41,862 nt of DNA, from IMG/VR virus record IMGVR_UViG_3300031910_000021, positions 1 through 41,862 of that record, one strand, 5' to 3'. The first letter of the stretch is position 1. The number at the start of each line of letters is the position of its first letter. Source of the stretch: a virus (taxonomy: Duplodnaviria; Caudoviricetes). A program made the position numbers and the translations under genes. This document shows positions 2 to 26,914 of the stretch, piece by piece. The notes under the pieces are model-generated. The model saw only the letters and a list, made by a program, of their open reading frames with translations. It was not told the origin of the DNA and made no database searches.

Positions 2-835
2 TGGCGTGATGGTGAAATGCACAGCCGTGGCGGTGGCCGTCGCCGGGTTGGAGATAGTCGCAGCCGTGGCGCTGGTCATCTCGGTGATCACCGTGCCAGG
101 TGGAATGCCTGGACCGGTGATCGTGCCGCCCTCATCGGACTCGGTGAAGTTGGCCGTGGCCGACGTGATCGCGGTCGACGCCGTCGTGGTCACACCGTCA
201 GTGACACTGCGACTCGTGGGAAGGGCGGCGCTCAGGTCGGTCAGGTTGATGTACTTCGACCCGGTCCAGGGGTTGTTGACGATAGGGATCGCATAGTTCG
301 CCTGGCCCAGGTTGGTGGACCCCTGGGTCATGGACAGATCCGGCCAGGTCTCTACGACATTCGTAGGACCGTTGCCCTGGTACTTCACCACGATGGTGAA
401 GGTCTCCACCTCCCCCAGGGAGGTCTTGACATTGCCAGGCAGGATGTCGATCCACAGGTTGTTGCCCCAGGCCCCAGGATTGGAGGCGTTGATCTGAAGC
501 GTCGGTACCGCGGTGGTGGCCTGGTCGTTGAACGACGACTGGGCGATGGTCGGACCTGAGGCGTCCAGACGATAGGCGCGGATGATCACGGCGCTGGTGC
601 CGCCGGCAGAGAAGAAGCTGTACACCGCCAAGTGCAGATTGCTAGGCGGGAAGGCGGTCTCAAACCCTCCGAACCAGGAGGTGAACTCTCTCCAGGAGTT
701 GACACGAGTGGGAACCAGCGGGCCACGAGGGCACGGTCCTACGAAGCATGCCGCCGCCGTACCCGGCGAGGCACTGACGTAGGTGGGGAACGCCGACATG
801 TCGACGTAGACCCCTGGCCTGGTCAAGGTTGGCAT
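2..835 (-). CDS. Tail sheath protein (N-terminal part, runs off the left edge)
   Basis: Manual translation from ATG at 835 (GGAGGA RBS): MPTLTRPGVYVDMSAFPT...ACFVGPCPRGPLVPTRVNSWREFTSWFGG...LAVYSFFSAGG...INASNPGAWGN, a typical contractile sheath N-terminus. Absent from the ORF track because it has no stop in the window. Confidence 0.9.
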   Translation of the reverse strand, partial: MPTLTRPGVYVDMSAFPTYVSASPGTAAACFVGPCPRGPLVPTRVNSWREFTSWFGGFETAFPPSNLHLAVYSFFSAGGTSAVIIRAYRLDASGPTIAQSSFNDQATTAVPTLQINASNPGAWGNNLWIDILPGNVKTSLGEVETFTIVVKYQGNGPTNVVETWPDLSMTQGSTNLGQANYAIPIVNNPWTGSKYINLTDLSAALPTSRSVTDGVTTTASTAITSATANFTESDEGGTITGPGIPPGTVITEMTSATAATISNPATATATAVHFTITP

Positions 836-4417: not shown

Positions 4418-5053
4418 ATGGGCATCTCTCAGCAGTTCGGGTGGTGGACAGTGATAGACCCTGCCATCCAGGACAGACGCACGAACCAGAAGGTGTTGTG
4501 TCGTTGCCGTTGTGGCAACGAAAAGTACGTCTACCTGGGGAATCTCCGATCAGGTAAATCGAAATCATGCGGGTGTTTCCGAGATGAGCGCGTCAGGGCA
4601 ACGAACAGCACGCACGGTTGGTCACGTACCAAGCTCCACCGATGCTGGACTGGCATCCTGACCCGTTGTGACAATCCAAAGAACAGCCACTACCACCGTT
4701 ACGGAGGCCGGGGAATCACAGTCTGTCCCGAGTGGCGTGATTTTCGCACCTTCATGACCTGGGCGTTGTCTCACGGGTATGAGGAAGATCTCACCATCGA
4801 ACGCATCGACAACGATGGTCCCTACTCTCCCGACAACTGCCACTCATGTCTCAGGGGAGAAAACCTTGCCGTTAGGAATCTACGACTTCTATCTCGACTC
4901 CTGGGCCGACTGGCAGAGGACAGTGGCGATCAAGGATGCCACCACCAACCTCCTGGTGCCAATGAGCGCCGCTGTCATGGAGATTCGGAACCAAAACTTC
5001 GTCCTGGTGATGCGCCTCGACGCCGCCTCCAGTCGCTGCACGATCCTGAGTGA
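4418..5053 (+). CDS. HNH homing-endonuclease-like gene, probably C-terminally truncated
   Basis: WTVI...CRCRCG...NLRSGKSKSCGC...RYGGRGITVCPEW...TIERIDNDGPYSPDNC. The usual RWAT..EQ..N end is missing and the frame reads 188 nt into the next gene. It has its own TATGAT -10 box 6 nt before the ATG. Confidence 0.8.
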   Translation: MGISQQFGWWTVIDPAIQDRRTNQKVLCRCRCGNEKYVYLGNLRSGKSKSCGCFRDERVRATNSTHGWSRTKLHRCWTGILTRCDNPKNSHYHRYGGRGITVCPEWRDFRTFMTWALSHGYEEDLTIERIDNDGPYSPDNCHSCLRGENLAVRNLRLLSRLLGRLAEDSGDQGCHHQPPGANERRCHGDSEPKLRPGDAPRRRLQSLHDPE

Positions 5054-5318
5054 CGGGGCCACTATCGCCCTTCATATCACTGCTGCGGACTCGCTGACCT
5101 ACTTCAGCCAGGGCAACTTTCCAGGAGCGGTGCAGGCAGTCGGGTTCTGGGGCATCGGGCGGTCTTACCTGTACGACCTCTTTGCCACCTACACCGCCAG
5201 CGGAGTACAGGACCGCATCATGCGCGGCTTCTTCAACGTCGACCCCAACATCAGCCGGCCACTGGACCCAAAGACCAACCTGGCCCTGACCATCGGACAG
5301 CGAGGCAGCTATGAGTGA
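4866..5318 (+). CDS. Putative baseplate/fibre-associated Ig-like protein
   Basis: TTG start after GGGGAGA RBS; [20 protein letters not shown]...YLYDL...[14 protein letters not shown]; precedes the collagen fibre gene. Confidence 0.55.
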
Positions 5319-9465: not shown

Positions 9466-10482
9466 CTAGTTTGTCCAGGCTATTACTACACTTTGATCTG
9501 TTATCAAACCGAATCCCCAGATGGCATACCAACAAAGTGCATGTTCTCTACCGAAATCCAATACACCACCATCACGTAGCTCGACAGGCAACGCAATAGC
9601 ATGACCAAACGCATTGTCCCCCAGGTACATGGCCCCGTGGACGACGCCGGCATTGGTGACCGCGCCCATGCCTGGAGGCCCGGTGTTGATGGCGTACTGA
9701 CGAACCTGCGTAGTTTCAATGTATACTACGTCATTTAGACGACCGATCTCGCCTATCATGAAGTTTCCCGCACTGGCGTATTTCGTCATCTCGATGAACT
9801 CAGGGTTGTCACGCAGGCGGCGGGACTGGTGAGGGTCGATGAAGCAGACGTAGGTCTCACCGATCCTGGGGACGTTCTTGGTCGCCAGGGTCTCGACGGC
9901 GTCCTTGCTGACGTTCACCGACATGTAGAAGGTGCCGGCCAGGGCGCTGTAGTTCGCTGCCACGGTGCCAGCGTCGTAGGGCGACAGCGGTGTCCTGGTA
10001 GCGGTAGGAGCGGGAAGCTGGTAGCCGAAGATGGCGCTAGAGGCGGCGTACAGGGTGTCCCTGGCGCTGCCGTCCAGATACTTCGCCATGTTCCTGCCCA
10101 GGAGCCGCGAGGACGAGGCCATCACGTCATCGAAGCTGGCGTTCAGGAGCAACTCGCTCACGGCCACGGCGTAGCCCTGCTCAGCCACTGTGATGGCATA
10201 TTGTGATGCCGTAAGGGCTGCCGTCTGCATTCGTACACCTTCAACGAGTTGTGATGCATCTCCTAGGTTATTATATCTCATGAAGTTCACCTGGAGTCCA
10301 GGCTGAACGCCCAACTCGGTCTTTTTCACCGCAAACTGCTCATATCTGAGCACAGGCATGCTCTGGAACAGGATCTCCTTGCTCCAGATCACCTGGATGG
10401 CCGGCGAAAGCTGCGAGTTCGTCCCTGGGTAGCCCGTGGGGCTGGCACTCAGCAGCGGGGTTCCTGTGATGCTGGATGGCAC
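9466..10482 (-). CDS. Major capsid protein (N4-gp56 family)
   Basis: 338 aa after the scaffold; LRYEQFAVKKTEL...FMRYNNL...GEIGRL...DFGREHALCWY. Confidence 0.92.
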   Translation of the reverse strand: MPSSITGTPLLSASPTGYPGTNSQLSPAIQVIWSKEILFQSMPVLRYEQFAVKKTELGVQPGLQVNFMRYNNLGDASQLVEGVRMQTAALTASQYAITVAEQGYAVAVSELLLNASFDDVMASSSRLLGRNMAKYLDGSARDTLYAASSAIFGYQLPAPTATRTPLSPYDAGTVAANYSALAGTFYMSVNVSKDAVETLATKNVPRIGETYVCFIDPHQSRRLRDNPEFIEMTKYASAGNFMIGEIGRLNDVVYIETTQVRQYAINTGPPGMGAVTNAGVVHGAMYLGDNAFGHAIALPVELRDGGVLDFGREHALCWYAIWGFGLITDQSVVIAWTN

Positions 10483-10511
10483 TAGCCAACCTCCTTATTT
10501 CGGGTACTACC

Positions 10512-11315
10512 TCACTGTCCTCTACGACTAGCTGACGCTGCACGCAAGAGATCTTCTCGTTGAGAAGCGTAATCTTCCGCGGACATCGCCTTGAGTTCAT
10601 CTGCCGTATAGGTACGGCTTGTTTGACTGGATTCCATAGGACCGACTGGGGGCGCGGTTACGCCAACCATGGGACGACCGGCCTGGAGATTTCTCATGGC
10701 CTGGACGCTGTCACTTTTCATGTGTTCGGATTTTTGGACGAGCATGGCGATGGAAGAGTCGATCTCTTCCTTGCTGTTACCGCCCACGAGGTCACGAAGA
10801 ATGGGGACGATATTGTCGCCCTGCTCTGCCATGCGCTGAGCCATGTAGGTCTGGAGAGAGGCGTGATGACGCTCTTGCTCCAGGAGGGCAAAGGCTCTTT
10901 CCCTCTCCTGGCGCTCCTCCAGGAGGCGGGCCTCCCACTCCTCATCCTTCTTCTGGATGAGGTCGCGGAGTTCCATCTCTTCCTCTTCTTTTTTCTTCGC
11001 CACCCTGGCGGCATCCCGTTGGGTCTTGGCCTCCGCGGCCTGCCGGTCCTCCTCAGCCTTGCGGAACTGGGCCAGTTCATTTTCCAGGCCGTCCGCACGG
11101 GTCTGCTCTGCCAGCACCCGAGCACGCTCTTCCTGGCGGATGCGCTCGACATCCTCCTGGGTAAACGCCTGGGGCGGCTCTTCACTAGTGCGTTGGTTCC
11201 GATTGCCGCTGGTGGCCGGCGGCGGGGTGACCGGGACCGTGATGGTGTTGGGGTCAGGCGCGGGTGGATCGCCTTCAGGGGGCGCTGCGTTGGGGTCAGG
11301 TTCAACCGCGGTCAC
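10512..11315 (-). CDS. Capsid scaffolding protein
   Basis: Between portal and capsid; Pro-rich N-terminus, FTQEDVERIR coiled coil, C-terminal LKAMSAEDYA. Confidence 0.85.
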   Translation of the reverse strand: MTAVEPDPNAAPPEGDPPAPDPNTITVPVTPPPATSGNRNQRTSEEPPQAFTQEDVERIRQEERARVLAEQTRADGLENELAQFRKAEEDRQAAEAKTQRDAARVAKKKEEEEMELRDLIQKKDEEWEARLLEERQERERAFALLEQERHHASLQTYMAQRMAEQGDNIVPILRDLVGGNSKEEIDSSIAMLVQKSEHMKSDSVQAMRNLQAGRPMVGVTAPPVGPMESSQTSRTYTADELKAMSAEDYASQREDLLRAASASRRGQ

Positions 11316-13072
11316 GATTCATCCTCCTCTGGGAGTCGTCGTTGGGGGATCGTGGTGCCATGGGCCAAGGTCACGATCCGTTGGTACATCTTCGCCACGT
11401 CGGCGTTGTCTTTGAGGTCTAGACCAGGAGCCTGGGCGATCTTGGCGGCGGGAGCGGTGTTCACCTGGGGACCGCCGGCTGACTTGACACCACCGTTGCC
11501 GTTGCCCTTGCCACTGTTCCCCTGGGCGCTGGCCGGCGGGGGCGGCATGGGCTGAGGGCCTTCGGGGCTGACCATACCGGTCATGTTGGTGATGAGGGAG
11601 GCCACCTGGGCGCGCAGCATCTCCAGAGCAGCCTGTTGCTCCGCGTCGGCAACAAGCTCCTTGAAGAGTTCCTCCAGCTTCTCGTCGGGGAACTCCTCCC
11701 CCAGTTCCTCCAGGGCACCACGCTTGGACTCCAGACCCAGGGCCATCTTGACCTGTAGCTCGTTGAGCAGCACCAGCTTGTCCACCGGCAGCGGGGGCTG
11801 GAAGTGACAGGTGTTCTCGTAGCTCACCGGGTCCATGGGGTCCAGCATCGGAAGCGAGTCATCCCGCATGGGTGGGTCGAAGGTGTCGTTCCAGGTGAGG
11901 GTCTCAGGCTCCTTCATGAACATGGTCTTCAGCGCCAACCGGTTGATCTCTGCGATGCCCTCCCCGTACTGGGTGGACTTCAGCTTGAAGCGATTCATCA
12001 ACGGCTGGTACTGGATCGCCAGGGCCACGCCTGAGGTGTTGGAGATCGCTTGCTCCTCCCCAAGGGCCGTTTTAGGCACCCCGGTCATTTCGTGCATGGC
12101 GCTCTTGAGCACCTCTAGCAGCTTGATGGCCTGCTCGATGCCCCTTGGGTCGAAGAGCAAGTTCTCGACACGCGCATCCTTGTTCGGCACGCTCCACGTC
12201 TGATGTGTGCCCTTCTCCAGGTTGCTTGCTCTTGCCCCTATGACCACGGTTACCGGAGCGGCATGGTAGTTGACGATGTCGGCTATATCCGTAGCCGTTT
12301 CGTTGTACTGCCGGTTGAGCGGTGTGATGTCCTGTATGTCGGGCATGCCCCAGGGGGACGAGGCTATCGGCATGTTGCTGATGTGAACGATAGGGATCTC
12401 ACCCAGAGGGTTCTCCCTAGCGTCGATGAGTTCGTCATTGACGTACTCTTCGATCTGCTCTTCGGTCAATAGCTCCGTGTACGTGAAAACTTGACGGGTT
12501 CCCTCACTAGTTGTCCCCCAAAATCTGTACTTCAACTTAAAACGGATCAGGCGCTTCCTATCATGGGGATGCCATTCTGGAAATGCGAACGCGCTATTTA
12601 GAGGGAGGATGCGGACCCGTCCAGGGTGCGGCATTCCGGACGGGTCCACCCAGGGTTCTTCGTAAGCCACTTTGACGAAGCAGTCGCCAGTGACCGACCC
12701 CATACTCCCCATCTCCCAGAGCAAGGAATCCTTCTTGTTGTCCTTCTCCCAGATCCTCTGTAACCGCGTAGGTACAATGGCTGACGTAGCGTCAGGGGAG
12801 CGGAAAGACACGCCCTTACCGAAGACAAAGTTGGTCGTAAAATCGCTCAGAGCACGTACCCAGTTAAACGTAAGCTGTGGATCACCAAGGTCTGGGCGTT
12901 GCGCCCAGTGGTATCCCAGATAGAAGGCCCAGTTCATGGCATAACGATTGAGCCTGGGGCCATGCACCTCAAACTCTTCGTCAGCTAGCTCAACCAGCCC
13001 GAGCGGGGATATCTGGATCGTTAGATCACTGGATGCCGCTCTATAACTGGGAGACTGGAACTGGATTGACAT
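11312..13072 (-). CDS. Portal protein (SPP1 gp6-like)
   Basis: 586 aa; ENPLGEIPIVH, SNTSGVAL motifs; position upstream of scaffold and capsid. Confidence 0.9.
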   Translation of the reverse strand: MSIQFQSPSYRAASSDLTIQISPLGLVELADEEFEVHGPRLNRYAMNWAFYLGYHWAQRPDLGDPQLTFNWVRALSDFTTNFVFGKGVSFRSPDATSAIVPTRLQRIWEKDNKKDSLLWEMGSMGSVTGDCFVKVAYEEPWVDPSGMPHPGRVRILPLNSAFAFPEWHPHDRKRLIRFKLKYRFWGTTSEGTRQVFTYTELLTEEQIEEYVNDELIDARENPLGEIPIVHISNMPIASSPWGMPDIQDITPLNRQYNETATDIADIVNYHAAPVTVVIGARASNLEKGTHQTWSVPNKDARVENLLFDPRGIEQAIKLLEVLKSAMHEMTGVPKTALGEEQAISNTSGVALAIQYQPLMNRFKLKSTQYGEGIAEINRLALKTMFMKEPETLTWNDTFDPPMRDDSLPMLDPMDPVSYENTCHFQPPLPVDKLVLLNELQVKMALGLESKRGALEELGEEFPDEKLEELFKELVADAEQQAALEMLRAQVASLITNMTGMVSPEGPQPMPPPPASAQGNSGKGNGNGGVKSAGGPQVNTAPAAKIAQAPGLDLKDNADVAKMYQRIVTLAHGTTIPQRRLPEEDES

Positions 13073-13306: not shown

Positions 13307-13511
13307 CGCCGGCACGGTGGGTGGGGTTACCGCGATACACACCGTCGATGGCCTGGCCCAGGTCACTCATTTTGGGAGCGCGACCACCTTCCCGCCTGGG
13401 GGAGGTCGACAGCGGGCTGGCGTGTGGATCACGCCGGTCGTTCCACAGCGTCTGCACGTCCATGTACTCGACGTTCACACCATGGGTTGGGTAGTCGTGT
13501 ACCTCTGCCAT
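13299..13511 (-). CDS. Hypothetical protein
   Basis: MAEVHDYPTHG... with TGATG coupling to the upstream gene. Confidence 0.45.
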   Translation of the reverse strand: MAEVHDYPTHGVNVEYMDVQTLWNDRRDPHASPLSTSPRREGGRAPKMSDLGQAIDGVYRGNPTHRAGDE

Positions 13512-14761
13512 CAGAACAAACTCCCTTGCTGGCCGTGTTGGGCCTCGTGCTGCCTGGCTTGCAGGATCGGGTTCACCATCGCTTCGTCGGGGGCCTTGGC
13601 CCCCTTCTTCTTGCTGCTGTAGGAGGTGATCTTCTGCTCGTACCAATGGACCGGTTGAGCCACATGGGAGGGCAGGCCCCGCTGCTGAGCCGCGGTCTTC
13701 AGGGCGTGAGAGAAGTAGAGGTTCATGGCGTCGATGCTCGCCCCAGGCTCAAAGGGATGCTCGACGTTGTGAACCTTGGTGTTGTGGCTACCGCTCATCA
13801 CATCGGCACGGGTGTCCTCACCGAAGTCCTTGATGCCGGCACCACCACGCCACTCGTGCCGGTCGATCACCGGGTTGGCGTCCACCACCCTGGGGAACTC
13901 CTGGGCATCTCCGTAGGTGCCGGCCTTCACCGCCCAGTCCGACGCAGCTACAGCACTGCGTACCGGGGCACCCCTCGATCTCGACTTGGTGGCACCGGCA
14001 CTCTCCCCCGGTACGTCGAGTGGGTGGACGCCAGATCCCTCGTTGTGGATGATCCTGGCTGCATTCCTGGCGGTGGTGTGGAACCCACCTGTGCCCACCG
14101 GGGGCGACTCGCCCTCAGGTTCTTTCACTGGATCTCGGAACTGATTGATGTCGGGGTTGTGTACCAACTGCTGAGCGATCCGACCCGTGCGGTTGAGGTC
14201 GGTGTCAGGGTCCGAGTTGTGACTCAAGGCAGCCCTGGCGTAGTGGACCGTCGAGGTGTTCAGCCCCAGGTGAGCAGCAAGCTGGCCGCTCCTACGCTGG
14301 TCAGTACCAGGCCCTCCGGTGTAGTAGTCCTGGCCGGTAGCGACGTTGGAACCGCGGTTGTGGGCGCGGATGTAAGCGTTGTCGAGATCGGCTCCGTAGT
14401 GATGGACGATGTCACCGAAGTGCAGCCCGAGCCTCTTGTGAACATCGGCCTCGACACCGGCCCGAACATGGTCAGGGAGGTCGTCCCAGGTCGCCTGGCG
14501 CTTCATGTCGATGGGAGTGTGTTGTTGGCCTAGATCCAACCTCCCCTGAGTGCGCTGCTTCTCCTGCATCGTGGCGTGGGTAGGGAAGTGCTCCTCCTGG
14601 GACCACTTGGGATCGAGCCAGCCGTGGGCCTGGTAGTCCTCTTGGGTGTACTGGCCTGGCTCCTTGTCGAAGCTGCCGGCACGAGCAGGCCGCGGCGTGC
14701 CAGTGCCCTGGGCCATAGCGGCCATCTCATGAGGGCCAGGAACGCTGGAGCGTTTGTTCAC
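13511..14761 (-). CDS. Hypothetical protein, possible HhH-GPD/DUF7178-like domain
   Basis: 416 aa; GQDYY...AALS...NAARII...K...PVIDRH...AAQQRGL...QPVHW layout recalled from DUF7178-type phage proteins; ends QQGSLF. Confidence 0.5.
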   Translation of the reverse strand: MNKRSSVPGPHEMAAMAQGTGTPRPARAGSFDKEPGQYTQEDYQAHGWLDPKWSQEEHFPTHATMQEKQRTQGRLDLGQQHTPIDMKRQATWDDLPDHVRAGVEADVHKRLGLHFGDIVHHYGADLDNAYIRAHNRGSNVATGQDYYTGGPGTDQRRSGQLAAHLGLNTSTVHYARAALSHNSDPDTDLNRTGRIAQQLVHNPDINQFRDPVKEPEGESPPVGTGGFHTTARNAARIIHNEGSGVHPLDVPGESAGATKSRSRGAPVRSAVAASDWAVKAGTYGDAQEFPRVVDANPVIDRHEWRGGAGIKDFGEDTRADVMSGSHNTKVHNVEHPFEPGASIDAMNLYFSHALKTAAQQRGLPSHVAQPVHWYEQKITSYSSKKKGAKAPDEAMVNPILQARQHEAQHGQQGSLF

Positions 14762-15154: not shown

Positions 15155-15556
15155 TCAGTCGGTGACGACTTCGGGAGACCGCCTCTTCTGGATACCGCCC
15201 GAGCGGAACACCTCCTCGTAGCGGACCTCAGCCTGGTCAGTAAATGAGCCGTGGGCGAACTCACCCAGCATTGTGGGGGCGTCGATCCAGGCTGCCGAGC
15301 CGACGTGTGCCCGCTCCTGCATGGTCTCGTCGGGCATCTTGAACTGCACCTGAGGGTCGACGTGATTTATGCGGCCAGGGGCGCTGACCATGAACTCGAT
15401 CATGCCCCGCTGGAAGTCGGTGGGAATGTCGGTGTCAGTACTCAAACCCTCCTCGAATCGCAGCGGGCCGCGCCCACCTGGGGCGTTCGGCCCCATGGTC
15501 TCGTCGTAGGCGTACCGGCCGCGTTCGGGAAACTGCGGTTCGGGGGCCAAACTCAT
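15155..15556 (-). CDS. Conserved-looking virion hypothetical protein
   Basis: GGAGG RBS; GPLRFEEG..TDTDIP...ERAHVGSAAW; first gene after the late promoter at 15587. Confidence 0.65.
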   Translation of the reverse strand: MSLAPEPQFPERGRYAYDETMGPNAPGGRGPLRFEEGLSTDTDIPTDFQRGMIEFMVSAPGRINHVDPQVQFKMPDETMQERAHVGSAAWIDAPTMLGEFAHGSFTDQAEVRYEEVFRSGGIQKRRSPEVVTD

Positions 15557-15594: not shown

Positions 15595-15702
15595 CTGTGC
15601 GGCACTTCCCCCCTAGACCACCCGACGGGCCATGCCTCGCCGTACCTCGTCGTGCCGAGCCAGTCCCCATCTCCCCTCACCAAACCGACGTACCAGGGTG
15701 AA

Positions 15703-24130: not shown

Positions 24131-24583
24131 GATCCGAATCGACAAGCCAGTCCAGTCCAGATCCATACCGACGACCCCTGCCCCGTCTGGTCATCTCGCG
24201 TCGGGCCGCCCCTACCCGCCTCCAGCCGACATGCCTACCCGCACCATGCCCGATCTAGCCACGCCGACAAACCCTCCCAAGTCACGCCGTATCCCATCCC
24301 TCCGAGCCGACATACCCGACCTTGTCCTTCCGGCTCACACCGACATGCCTAACCGGACCATGCCGAGCCGAGCCATCCCGACTCGTCAGCCCAGGCCATG
24401 TTTCATCCCAGATCAGTCCGCGCCAGATCGACGTTCCATGCCGCACCCGATATCAAGCTTGACCCACCCGACTTGCCAACTCTCGATCCAGCCACCTCCA
24501 TTCTGACCGACACGCCCTGCTGCACCCTACCCATCCAAGCCGACTAGCCCCGCCTAAGCCTAGCCGTCCCATGCCGACGAACC
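24131..24583. ncRNA. Pentamer-periodic putative guide array 1: 11 units of (NN-RCC)n-GAC
   Basis: Example unit: gaccc ctgcc ccgtc tggtc atctc gcgtc gggcc gcccc taccc gcctc cagcc GAC. The minus strand reads GTC(GGY-NN)n. Transcribed strand unknown. Confidence 0.75.
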
Positions 24584-24596
24584 AAAGGAGAAAATA

Positions 24597-25325
24597 ATGC
24601 CGAGAACACCAGCAGAACCCGTCGAGGAAATCCCCGTCGCCCGCCTCAAGGAAGACCTTTCCCTCTATCCCCGTCGCAGGATCGACACCACTAACATCTC
24701 CACCCTGGTGGAGGCATATGAAGCCTTCAATGCCGGCGAGGGGGACGAACCTCCCCCAATCATCGTCACCCGCGGCAAAGTCATTGTCGACGGCGTCCAC
24801 CGGGCCAGGGCCAAGCGGAAGGTCTACGGGGATGACGCCACCATCTCCTGCATCGTGCGTCACTACCGGACCAAGGCCGAGATGTTCTACGACGCCTGCA
24901 TGCTCAACAGCGGGAGGGGTCACGACCTGTCGCGATGGGATCAGCTTCATTGTGTCGAACTAGCACGGGAACTCAAGCTGCCCATCGAGCGGCTCGCCAA
25001 GGCCCTGGGCTGGACTTCTGAGCGGCTCCTGTCCTTCAGCGAGAGGCGGGCCACCCAGACCCTGAGCGGCAAAAAGACGCACCTCAAGTCTTCTCTCCTG
25101 TCCCAGAAGAACGGCCCCATAAGCGAAGAGGTGGAAGCGATCAACGAGACACCTGGCGGTGTCGACGGCATGTCACCGGCCTACCACGCCCGCATGCTGC
25201 TGATGCACCTCCAGGCCGACAGTATCCCCTACGAGGCCAACCTGGCTCACAGGTTGGCTGACCTGGCAGCCGCCATCGAAGAGTGGCTGTCCAACTATGG
25301 GGCCGAAGAAGAAGAAGCCCAATAG
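24597..25325 (+). CDS. ParB/Srx N-terminal domain protein
   Basis: AAGGAG RBS; LYPRR...PPIIVT...IVDGVHRARA...LNSGRGHDLS. Confidence 0.8.
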   Translation: MPRTPAEPVEEIPVARLKEDLSLYPRRRIDTTNISTLVEAYEAFNAGEGDEPPPIIVTRGKVIVDGVHRARAKRKVYGDDATISCIVRHYRTKAEMFYDACMLNSGRGHDLSRWDQLHCVELARELKLPIERLAKALGWTSERLLSFSERRATQTLSGKKTHLKSSLLSQKNGPISEEVEAINETPGGVDGMSPAYHARMLLMHLQADSIPYEANLAHRLADLAAAIEEWLSNYGAEEEEAQ

Positions 25326-25337
25326 AAAGGAATCACC

Positions 25338-26117
25338 ATGTCCGCATCCGATATTTTCAAGTTCCAGTCCCGGTGGACGACCTACACCGGATCCCTCCAC
25401 ATCAACACCCTGGTCGGTGGCATCCCCAAGGACGGGGCCACCATCCACGCCTTCGTCAAGGCCCGCATCACCGACAACGCCTCCGAGATGAGCCGCATTG
25501 CCGAAGAGACCATGGTCGAAATGGGTCTTGACCCTGTTCTCGACAAGGATGAACTGAGCGCCGCCCAGGTCGATGAGATCGTGGACAAGGTGTCCAAGAA
25601 GGCCGTGGCCGGCAACGGCTTCAAGCAGATCAACGGTGAACTGGTCTGGGAGGGTCGCTGTCTCAAGGCTGCCCTGAACGAGGCGTGCAATGCCCTCTAC
25701 CCAGGCGTGGAATCCTTCCCCGGCAAGCCCGACAAAACCAAGAAGGGCCTCAAGAGCTACTTCATAGAGCGGGTGGAAGTCGTTGACTACTACATCCCCC
25801 TGGGCCGCACCGAGCCTGACATCAAGGGCGAGGAGCGCATCAAGCACATCAGCGGCCCCCAAGGCAAGCGCAGCGCCATCAACCTCGTGGACGTATGCAC
25901 TGACCTGGACATCACCTTCACCATCAAGGTGCTGAACGACTGGGTGCCACAGGAGTTGTGGCAGGAGCTTTTTGAGTACGTCGAGTTGGGTGGCGTATGG
26001 GCTGACCGCGCCCGCGGTGACGGGCGTTGCGAGCTAACCTCCTGGGAAAAATCGACCGACTCCAGGAGCGTCACCCGCTCCAACGGCAAGCGCCGGCTTG
26101 CCACCACCGCGTCATAG
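25338..26117 (+). CDS. Stand-alone Cas7/RAMP-like protein
   Basis: N-terminal strand TYTGSLHINTLVGGIP; ELVWEGRCLKAAL (cf. RAMP p.ipgssLKGal); LDITFTIKV; C-terminal G-rich loop GGVWADRARGDGRCEL (cf. GlGa.Rs.G.Grf). Confidence 0.75.
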   Translation: MSASDIFKFQSRWTTYTGSLHINTLVGGIPKDGATIHAFVKARITDNASEMSRIAEETMVEMGLDPVLDKDELSAAQVDEIVDKVSKKAVAGNGFKQINGELVWEGRCLKAALNEACNALYPGVESFPGKPDKTKKGLKSYFIERVEVVDYYIPLGRTEPDIKGEERIKHISGPQGKRSAINLVDVCTDLDITFTIKVLNDWVPQELWQELFEYVELGGVWADRARGDGRCELTSWEKSTDSRSVTRSNGKRRLATTAS

Positions 26118-26121
26118 CAGG

Positions 26122-26145
26122 GAGGGGCGGCTTAGACCGCCCCTC
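26122..26145. terminator. Hairpin bordering array 2
   Basis: GAGGGGCGG-cttaga-CCGCCCCTC, 9-bp stem. Confidence 0.6.
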
Positions 26146-26909
26146 ACACCAAACCAAACCGACTTGCCGTTTTCCTTGCCGTGCCTGACCCGATCACGCC
26201 TAGCTGACTCGCCAACCCATGTCTCCCCCAGCCGACTCGCTCCGACAACCCTGACTACCCGACCCTGGCCGTGCCCGCTCAGGCCCTGCCGACTAGCCTC
26301 ACCCGTCCCGGCCCCGTCCTGCCAACCCTTGCCGTGCCGACACGCCTGCCCCAGCCATCCCTCGCCGTTACGGGCCTCGCCTAGCCGACTATCCCCGCCT
26401 TCCCGTGCCAAGCCGCTCCGACATCTCCGGCCCGACCCCCTCAAGCCAATCCGACCCGCCATCCCCGTTCTTTTCTCTCTCAGGCCCAGCCGACTCGCCA
26501 CGCCTCGTCCCCCCCTTCCCGGCCTACCCCACCCTGACCGACCCGCCAAGCCTGCTCCGACCCAGCCGCGCCCTCGCCAGACCTTGCCATGCCGACACTC
26601 CAGTCCCTGCCCCCCTTGCCCCGAACCACCCCAGCCGACTGCCCTTGCCGCATCACGCCGACCCAGGCCAGACCTCGCCAAGCCGACTCGCCCATCCCTG
26701 TCCACCCATCTCATCCCGACTTGCCGTCCCGCGCCACGCCCCGCCGAGTCTTATCCCGCCGAGTCATGCCGACTCGCCACGCCGCGCCGGCCCGTGCCGC
26801 GCCTCGCCTCGCCCCGCCAAACCGACCCACCAATCTCCTGCCCAGTCAACCCGTGCCCCGCCGACTCGCCTCGCCGTGTCATGCCCTGCCCTTGCCTCGC
26901 CTAGCTGAC
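26146..26909. ncRNA. Pentamer-periodic putative guide array 2: about 18 units of (NN-RCC)n-GAC
   Basis: Example units: tagcc tcacc cgtcc cggcc ccgtc ctgcc aaccc ttgcc gtgcc GAC acgcc tgccc cagcc atccc tcgcc gttac gggcc tcgcc tagcc GAC. ORFs here are low-complexity artefacts. Confidence 0.8.
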
Positions 26910-26914
26910 TAACC

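Follow-up and report, generated by a model that had tools for sequence, protein, structure and literature searches.

The 41.9 kb stretch of DNA considered here (41,862 nt, IMG/VR record IMGVR_UViG_3300031910_000021; called the window below) comes from a tailed phage and encodes WhiB, DNA polymerase A, a RecA-like protein and head genes. This work deals with AT-rich, mostly silent patches in two of these head genes, those of the major capsid protein and the portal. BRock (about 67% DNA identity in the capsid gene) and the other named relatives are Streptomyces phages, and prophage relatives are found mostly in Streptomyces, Actinomadura, Nonomuraea and Herbidospora; an actinobacterial host is probable. 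Near-complete relatives have genomes of 100-117 kb. All the listed runs that hold the sequence (24/24) are soil metagenomes, and no RNA dataset is among them. The two genes are:

9466..10482, minus strand: major capsid protein gene, 338 aa, uninterrupted (PHROG 1357, E 6.7e-58; Pfam Phage_capsid_4)
11312..13072, minus strand: portal gene, 586 aa, uninterrupted (Pfam SPP1_portal, E 7.2e-29)

The original prediction, made from the letters of the window alone, described sharply bounded patches of A/T-ending codons in both genes, and the codon strings that it quoted are present there. Contigs from four other runs carry the same letters with no alternatives, so the patches are not assembly errors. 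Clustering of A or T at third codon positions (A/T3) was compared with 2000 amino-acid-preserving shuffles, for which p=0.0005 is the floor. In the capsid gene it is the strongest among 26 genes (autocorrelation 1.23, p=0.0005; best window 13/15, p=0.003), whereas in the portal it is only weak (0.18, p=0.042; best window 10/15, p=0.25). Six further genes also reach p<0.01, but with statistics of just 0.25-0.60. Hot windows per 1000 codons, counted genome-wide, amount to 1.9 for capsid, 2.8 for scaffold, 2.7 for exonuclease, 0.65 for portal, 0.56 for terminase and 0-0.44 for replication genes, figures that are only indicative, some alleles having been entered twice and the sheath row, which was out of frame, having been excluded. 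Additional AT-rich third-position windows, common to several relatives, are located at the scaffold 3' end (10512-10600) and around terminase motif codons ~404-416.

The relatives used for comparison are among the matches listed in two capsid scans, and they represent part of about 1800-2200 stretches; most of them are fragment contigs, and both near-copies of the window's own allele and duplicate alleles were removed ahead of counting. In 32-33 close relatives the A/T3 profile is similar to the window's (rho 0.71 and 0.85), hence the hot places are clade-wide. The claim that the patches sit at the most conserved parts of both proteins holds only in part. Capsid patch windows show conservation values of 0.88-0.97 (except the edge window 256-270), but the equally conserved capsid codons 31-45, 106-135 and 196-210 have an A/T3 of 0.07-0.08, and conservation correlates with A/T3 in the portal (rho 0.52, p=0.002) but not in the capsid (rho 0.11, p=0.62). 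The switch between codon families of Leu, Ser and Arg, which had also been described, was not borne out, since it is not enriched in the patches of the capsid (7/19 vs 11/45, p=0.37) or the portal (8/34 vs 13/58, p=1.0).

What does characterize the capsid patches is that the protein is kept while the DNA leaves the usual codons of the clade. Amino acids are changed at 5/120 codons inside the patches vs 16/218 outside. Silent changes affect 62/109 codons inside vs 54/195 outside, a contrast that is partly circular, the patches having been chosen for their AT richness. Most of these silent changes (53/62) concern the third position alone.

A codon alignment with 33 close relatives divides the capsid patches into seven blocks, called A to G, of 27-66 nt (9-22 codons) and with dense, mostly silent change. 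In each block, 5-16 codons depart from the clade's commonest codon, nearly all of them silently. The window carries blocks B, C, E, F and G, and lacks A and D. The blocks are listed here together with the intron sites known from relatives:

10288..10314, minus strand: place of block A (codons 57-65), absent from the window and carried by 11/31 relatives
10246..10278, minus strand: block B (codons 69-79), 10/11 codons off the clade's commonest, 9 silent; spans the codon-70 intron site (L057)
10201..10239, minus strand: block C (codons 82-94), 8 silent changes; no known element site inside
9790..9825, minus strand: place of block D (codons 220-231), absent from the window and carried by 9/31 relatives; abuts intron site 232 (L265)
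9721..9756, minus strand: block E (codons 243-254), with 4/5 derived codons in the window; spans intron site 247/248 (prophage L263)
9532..9597, minus strand: block F (codons 296-317), 16 of its 22 codons silently changed; contains intron site 311/312 (L264) and borders on intron site 318 (L261, L307 and the distant L205 and L221)
9481..9513, minus strand: block G (codons 324-334), 9 silent changes

The four blocks tested behave as all-or-none units, the variance of their derived-codon counts being above that of all 5000 column shuffles (p=0.0002). On a tree of capsid codons 96-215 with 31 alleles (L041 and L010 left out; capsid only), the carriers of A, B, D, E and F were each rejected as a clade (approximately unbiased test, p-AU 2.6e-5 to 9.3e-3), and all four combinations are present for 8/10 block pairs. 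For instance, L097 and the window have in common 14/16 derived codons of block F, with an ordinary background identity of 0.66. Therefore, the blocks move sideways as short units, a statement made with carrier groups defined from the same alignment and without a control for general recombination in the gene. Short recoded blocks thus appear, from these alignments, to pass between related phages as units.

Sideways spread fits any recombination, and the simplest source would be a low-GC donor phage, the alternative that the original prediction itself had set against escape. No such donor was found. The nucleotide identity of the patches to low-GC relatives is at most 0.75, and among 125 distant capsids listed (39 of them with G or C at 0.31-0.61 of third positions, GC3) the best match holds 7/16 derived codons of block F. 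The blocks encode the residues of the close clade and not those of the 39 low-GC capsids, and they use codons that even these capsids avoid: ATA accounts for 4/6 Ile codons in the blocks vs 8/747 in low-GC capsids, AAT at codon 71 is present in 0/39, and GAT at 309 and GAA at 313 in 6%. Of the 14 IMG/VR stretches that contain a 17-mer of block F, 12 are capsids of phages with 60-61% GC (several of them copies of the window's own phage), the other 2 being unrelated chance matches. These data speak against introgression, neutral or under weak selection, in which short tracts would come from a close low-GC3 lineage outside the sample. In favor of introgression are the partial sampling given above, the existence of some low-GC capsids that are A-rich at third positions (0.55-0.58), and the fact that recombination is easiest where the protein is conserved. 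Taken together with its variant described below, in which the blocks are scars of lost elements, we consider this explanation rather unlikely.

Different mobile elements interrupt the same two genes in relatives. Group I introns are present at eight capsid positions in homologs (codons 38, 47, 52, 70, 232, 247/248, 311/312 and 318), seven of which lie within or at the edge of the originally described patches. The close relative L057 carries a 237-nt group I intron inside Tyr70, preceded by U and ending in G, with an Rfam score of 26.4 that is under the gathering score; among the more distant introns, which occupy the other seven positions, four exceed it. Related short group I introns were observed in the capsid genes of L261, L263, L264, L265, L266, L307, L057, L205 and L221, and two capsid genes carry two introns each. 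The spread of related introns over eight capsid positions suggests, as judged from their sequences, transposition to new sites.

Inteins are even more frequent in the portal. All the longer portal homologs (77/77) contain them, with a total of 97 inteins of 310-362 aa at seven sites, four of which are in or at the edge of patches. By hand count, 72/97 are inserted at sites 162, 186, 196 or 198, inside one of the two portal patches:

12470..12605, minus strand: portal patch (codons 156-200), with intein sites after codons 162, 186, 196 and 198
12760..13070, minus strand: weak portal 5' patch (codons 1-103), no known intein site; relatives carry 4-16 nt insertions

A precomputed LAGLIDADG match exists for 11/77 intein-bearing portals. 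Portal residue 163 is Ala in the window and Cys in 27/34 close alleles. A contig that runs into an intein at site 198, with the same start as that of L123, was found in the same run as the window's allele. Intein-sized insertions were also observed in the terminase of L025 and L073, and single portals (P0090, P0116) carry up to three inteins.

Free-standing HNH_3 genes are present in 9/41 relatives, directly behind the portal gene in L003/L123 and in L122. In L120, an HNH gene is located downstream of the capsid gene. The window has an HNH gene of its own, whose 3' part overlaps the next open reading frame (4779-5318) and whose homologs were seen in only a few relatives:

4418..5053, plus strand: free-standing HNH-type endonuclease gene, low GC3 (PHROG 374, E 8.8e-53; no Pfam family)

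If introns or inteins had once occupied the window's genes and been lost, the blocks could be scars of co-conversion. In element-bearing alleles the flanks have a somewhat raised AT content (0.32 and 0.30 vs a background of 0.15 and 0.16), which fits such an origin. However, these flanks are no closer to the window's codons than to the clade's commonest codons, which speaks against co-conversion from those alleles.

Our analysis leads to the interpretation that the capsid blocks, and more weakly the portal patches, are likely to be escape alleles against homing endonucleases of co-infecting relatives. Escape from some sequence-specific agent is quite probable, and it is supported indirectly by the failure to find a low-GC donor, by the kept protein and by the sideways movement of the blocks. 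That homing enzymes are this agent is given a probability of about 0.45. Among the agents named in the original prediction (CRISPR, rival guide systems and homing nucleases), the latter gain circumstantial support from the introns, inteins and HNH genes of relatives. Intein-encoded or free-standing endonucleases of relatives would cut the usual, GC-ending sequence at conserved motifs. With the protein fixed, silent changes would build up across a long recognition site and, since the usual codon ends in C or G, most escapes would land on A or T; AT richness may thus be a by-product of escape. In mixed infections the cut allele would be repaired from the resistant one, so that a short tract is converted and the block spreads by marker exclusion. 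All three steps are proposed ones, with blocks matched to 0 enzymes so far.

There are parallels in known systems; the comparisons made here and below refer to the accessible parts of the cited sources. Marker exclusion is described as local gene conversion (PMC2988022), and the Seg endonucleases of T4, with their marker exclusion and intronless homing, and the HNH endonucleases of Skunavirus (PMC2988022, PMC12724721) likewise spread one allele of a conserved gene among related phages by this route. Free-standing HNH genes are present in the clade studied here, as in those systems. Unlike them, several dense silent blocks are stacked here in one gene and reassort independently, a situation known from sequence alone. 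The intron endonuclease gp210 of phage PhiPA3, an HNH homing enzyme, likewise targets a conserved motif at an intron site, and a gene copy engineered with 17 silent changes withstood it (PMC11620839); the density of change is like that of block F (16). The gp210 escapers reported in that study changed an amino acid, whereas here the blocks are natural and silent and are seen, again only as sequences, in a population. Portal and terminase inteins of actinobacteriophages (10.1101/2025.01.02.630785) and capsid and tail group I introns of Cluster J phages (PMC3706429) are the same types of elements in the same gene classes. The loss of the +1 nucleophile in this clade (Cys163 to Ala or Val) parallels the proline-resistant alleles of mcm, described as resistant to an intein (PMC10643990). 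These three accounts, as far as available, treat the elements, whereas the present case concerns recoded empty alleles.

Several observations weigh against escape from homing endonucleases, in addition to the partial circularity of the inside/outside contrast. Introns, inteins and any weapon prefer the same conserved motifs and, with conservation kept constant, A/T3 at element sites is only borderline higher than at other conserved places (p 0.03-0.46 over 16 variants, most >0.05). Within the close clade, 70 is the sole capsid intron site, all others having been found in relatives at a greater distance. The introns examined in the capsid gene are short (mostly ~230-300 nt, one ~400 nt) and apparently have no endonuclease gene, so that an enzyme would have to act in trans. 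A search for longer capsid proteins found none and scored none, which is a weak negative. There is no strong block at capsid sites 38, 47 and 52 or at portal sites 125, 270 and 271, and blocks C and G have no known element site. With respect to the enzymes, the parts retrieved from the two largest other carriers of block F contain no match to the window's HNH, the two most complete close genomes have no HNH_3 match, and no HNH is common to the block-F carriers in the parts compared, mostly fragment contigs. The loss of Cys163 is not significantly associated with recoding of the flank (p=0.20). Finally, the capsid blocks show a bias towards A (C>A at 11/18 four-fold sites vs 46/175 outside, p=0.005), which counts against this reading because endonuclease escape does not predict it.

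An A bias is expected if the blocks evade an RNA-guided reader whose pairing with the sense strand or the mRNA is contiguous, for example a mismatch-tolerant host type III CRISPR system or an undescribed phage antisense system, because C-to-U would leave a G-U pair. At four-fold and Ile sites the blocks contain 26 A vs 16 T, compared with 356 vs 771 outside the blocks in close relatives (p=8e-5) and with 386 vs 490 in six low-GC capsids (p=0.026). A tolerant reader also suits dense recoding, and capsid mRNA is expected to be abundant. On the other hand, the portal patches have no A bias, and the blocks were picked after the fact. The search for CRISPR spacers against one common-type capsid allele gave matches at chance level in 401 + 301 actinobacterial genomes, with 0/38 fetched loci in a repeat array; this is a weak negative, given that two candidates were scored per genome and that the host was not identified. 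Short matches at E<=0.01 were present in 83/401 and 102/301 genomes, from which the best 20 of each were fetched. The window itself has no CRISPR array, and in 40 pieces of 12 relatives a search for repeat-array guide systems only recovered tandem repeats resembling coding repeats. An RNA-guided reader is doubtful as the agent.

The window does contain a predicted guide system of another type. A Vipr-like RAMP gene, whose product has an invariant glycine-rich C-terminal motif, adjoins a ParB-like gene (24597-25325), and the locus is flanked by GTC-delimited GGN-NN arrays on the minus strand (~24190-24580 and 26140-26910). A single guide of the same type is situated outside this locus, ~70 nt upstream of its target gene 15155-15556:

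25338..26117, plus strand: Vipr-like RAMP gene (model pLDDT 83.5; best Foldseek match, Csm complex chains, E 7e-7)
15624..15689, minus strand: solo VIPR-type guide, 12 GGN-NN units (15627-15686) between two GTC triplets
15422..15457, minus strand: own copy of the solo-guide target in gene 15155-15556, 21/24 read bases

As predicted from its genes and the modelled fold, the locus 24190-26910 is VIPR-like and fits the published description (10.64898/2026.04.26.720920). It shares with published VIPR (10.64898/2026.04.26.720920; 10.64898/2026.10.15.759431) the RAMP protein, a partner gene of DNA-binding type, GGY/NN arrays, the wobble-aligned 1-nt skip and a guide that fits kin better than self. 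Similar arrays are present in L128, L135, L137 and L141-L143, and the strict array pattern was found at one other locus in IMG/VR.

With a 1-nt skip, the solo guide matches 24/24 bases, in frame, of the conserved gene 15155-15556 of L113 and L093, whereas skips of 0 and 2 give 17 and 18 matches (2.15 Mb searched). In the window's own copy the peptide is the same but the score is 21/24, because Leu is encoded by TTG and Ser by AGT; these two codons account for all three mismatches. The Leu/Ser-swap signature expected in the original prediction thus appears on this gene and not on the capsid or portal. Its 21/24 still exceeds the 80% counted as a match in the VIPR paper (10.64898/2026.04.26.720920), many relatives have Ala or Gly at the target place, and one relative with no detected array also has TTA AGC there. 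The solo guide could possibly serve autoregulation, or a guide that already missed self could have been selected. The other 18 guide rows have no convincing target among the relatives compared. Unlike in published VIPR, as far as the two preprints are accessible, the gene targeted here is part of the head module of close kin, and the own copy departs from it by synonymous Leu/Ser swaps.

The presence of a RAMP-fold protein with GGN-NN arrays, and of a guide that fits the head-module neighbour gene of kin perfectly, indicates that such a weapon is aimed at the clade. Rival phages could then be the source of VIPR guides that the patches evade, with reading either out of frame or at Leu/Ser/Arg codons. 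Against this, most silent capsid changes are found at the third position, which VIPR guides as published largely pass over (10.64898/2026.04.26.720920; 10.64898/2026.10.15.759431), and family switches are not enriched. The 20 decoded guides match capsid and portal alleles no better than shuffles do (0.794 vs 0.788), and Vipr was found in 0/31 capsid/portal relatives and 0/8 near-complete ones. The window's own VIPR arrays were also considered as a cause and rejected, no capsid or portal target having been found among 166 loci or for the 20 guides. In-frame gapped guides are thus disfavoured for the patches, though on a different gene one guide does distinguish kin from self. The patches of capsid and portal are not accounted for by VIPR, and escape from guides of rivals in the two special settings just mentioned is less probable than introgression.

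The patches could also tune expression, by means of a less structured or slower-read mRNA or of embedded promoters. Patch segments fold less stably than those of L007 (-29 vs -47, -31 vs -38 and -29 vs -33 kcal/mol), the AT-rich scaffold 3' end lies just before the capsid start, and an ordinary effect of the start region may explain part of the portal 5' patch. However, the z-scores for folding lie close to 0 in the patches, which makes the effect one of composition, and promoter-like sites are as frequent as expected (1 found vs 1.2). Promoters, terminators and special RNA structure were all at chance level in the tests made. Moreover, any given block is missing from most relatives and the blocks reassort freely. 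This is the least probable of the explanations considered.

The portal 5' region shows small changes of a different kind. At codons 28-54 (and at 175), recurrent insertions of 4-16 nt were observed, which mostly start with TGA, TAG or TTA and often have a repeated codon on either side. The carriers are:

phage relatives: L005, L006, L010, L064, L073, L077, L080, L095, L111, L115, L116, L117, L127
prophages: L252, L254, L258-L260, L263-L265

Their form recalls the bypassing linked to UUA that was proposed for the Hau3 terminase (PMC10732093), but they differ from that case, as far as it is described in the available part, in the stop-codon versions and in their location in the portal. In L010 (1045-1330) the portal 5' end is duplicated: the first 23 codons are present in a GC-rich copy, which is followed by ~70 nt of different sequence and then by an AT-richer recoded copy, the latter with two small TGA-containing insertions. 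Upstream of the portal, the gene slot 13511-14761 (minus strand) is highly variable and is filled by three separate protein clusters across relatives. The gene in this slot was considered as a nuclease, but the search gave only a lead to DUF7178.

A broader proposal, rather unlikely as a whole, is that the clade maintains a pool of 30-70 nt immunity cassettes, that is, portable, fully recoded copies of capsid motifs attacked by weapons of kin. Intron, intein, tiny bypassed insertion and silent recoding would then be four interchangeable protections of conserved sites in head genes, the A bias would mark an undescribed reader pairing with the sense strand, and wobble-skipping VIPR guides would most naturally be dodged by Leu/Ser/Arg family swaps.

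The mobile elements and marker exclusion are already known, and the new part is the existence of natural, reassorting silent blocks, on which no paper was found in a literature search of incomplete coverage that did not extend to preprint supplements. The solo guide would be a natural example of wobble skipping combined with discrimination between self and kin by synonymous Leu/Ser swaps, and these swaps would offer a way round a code described as proof against synonymous escape. If the blocks are escape alleles, each of them would supply one sensitive and one resistant target, ready for use in the search for the cognate enzyme, and the proposal that homing enzymes act as weapons among related phages would become a testable pattern at the population level. 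Local drops of GC3 in conserved genes would then be a fossil map of the sites at which phages attack the DNA of other phages.

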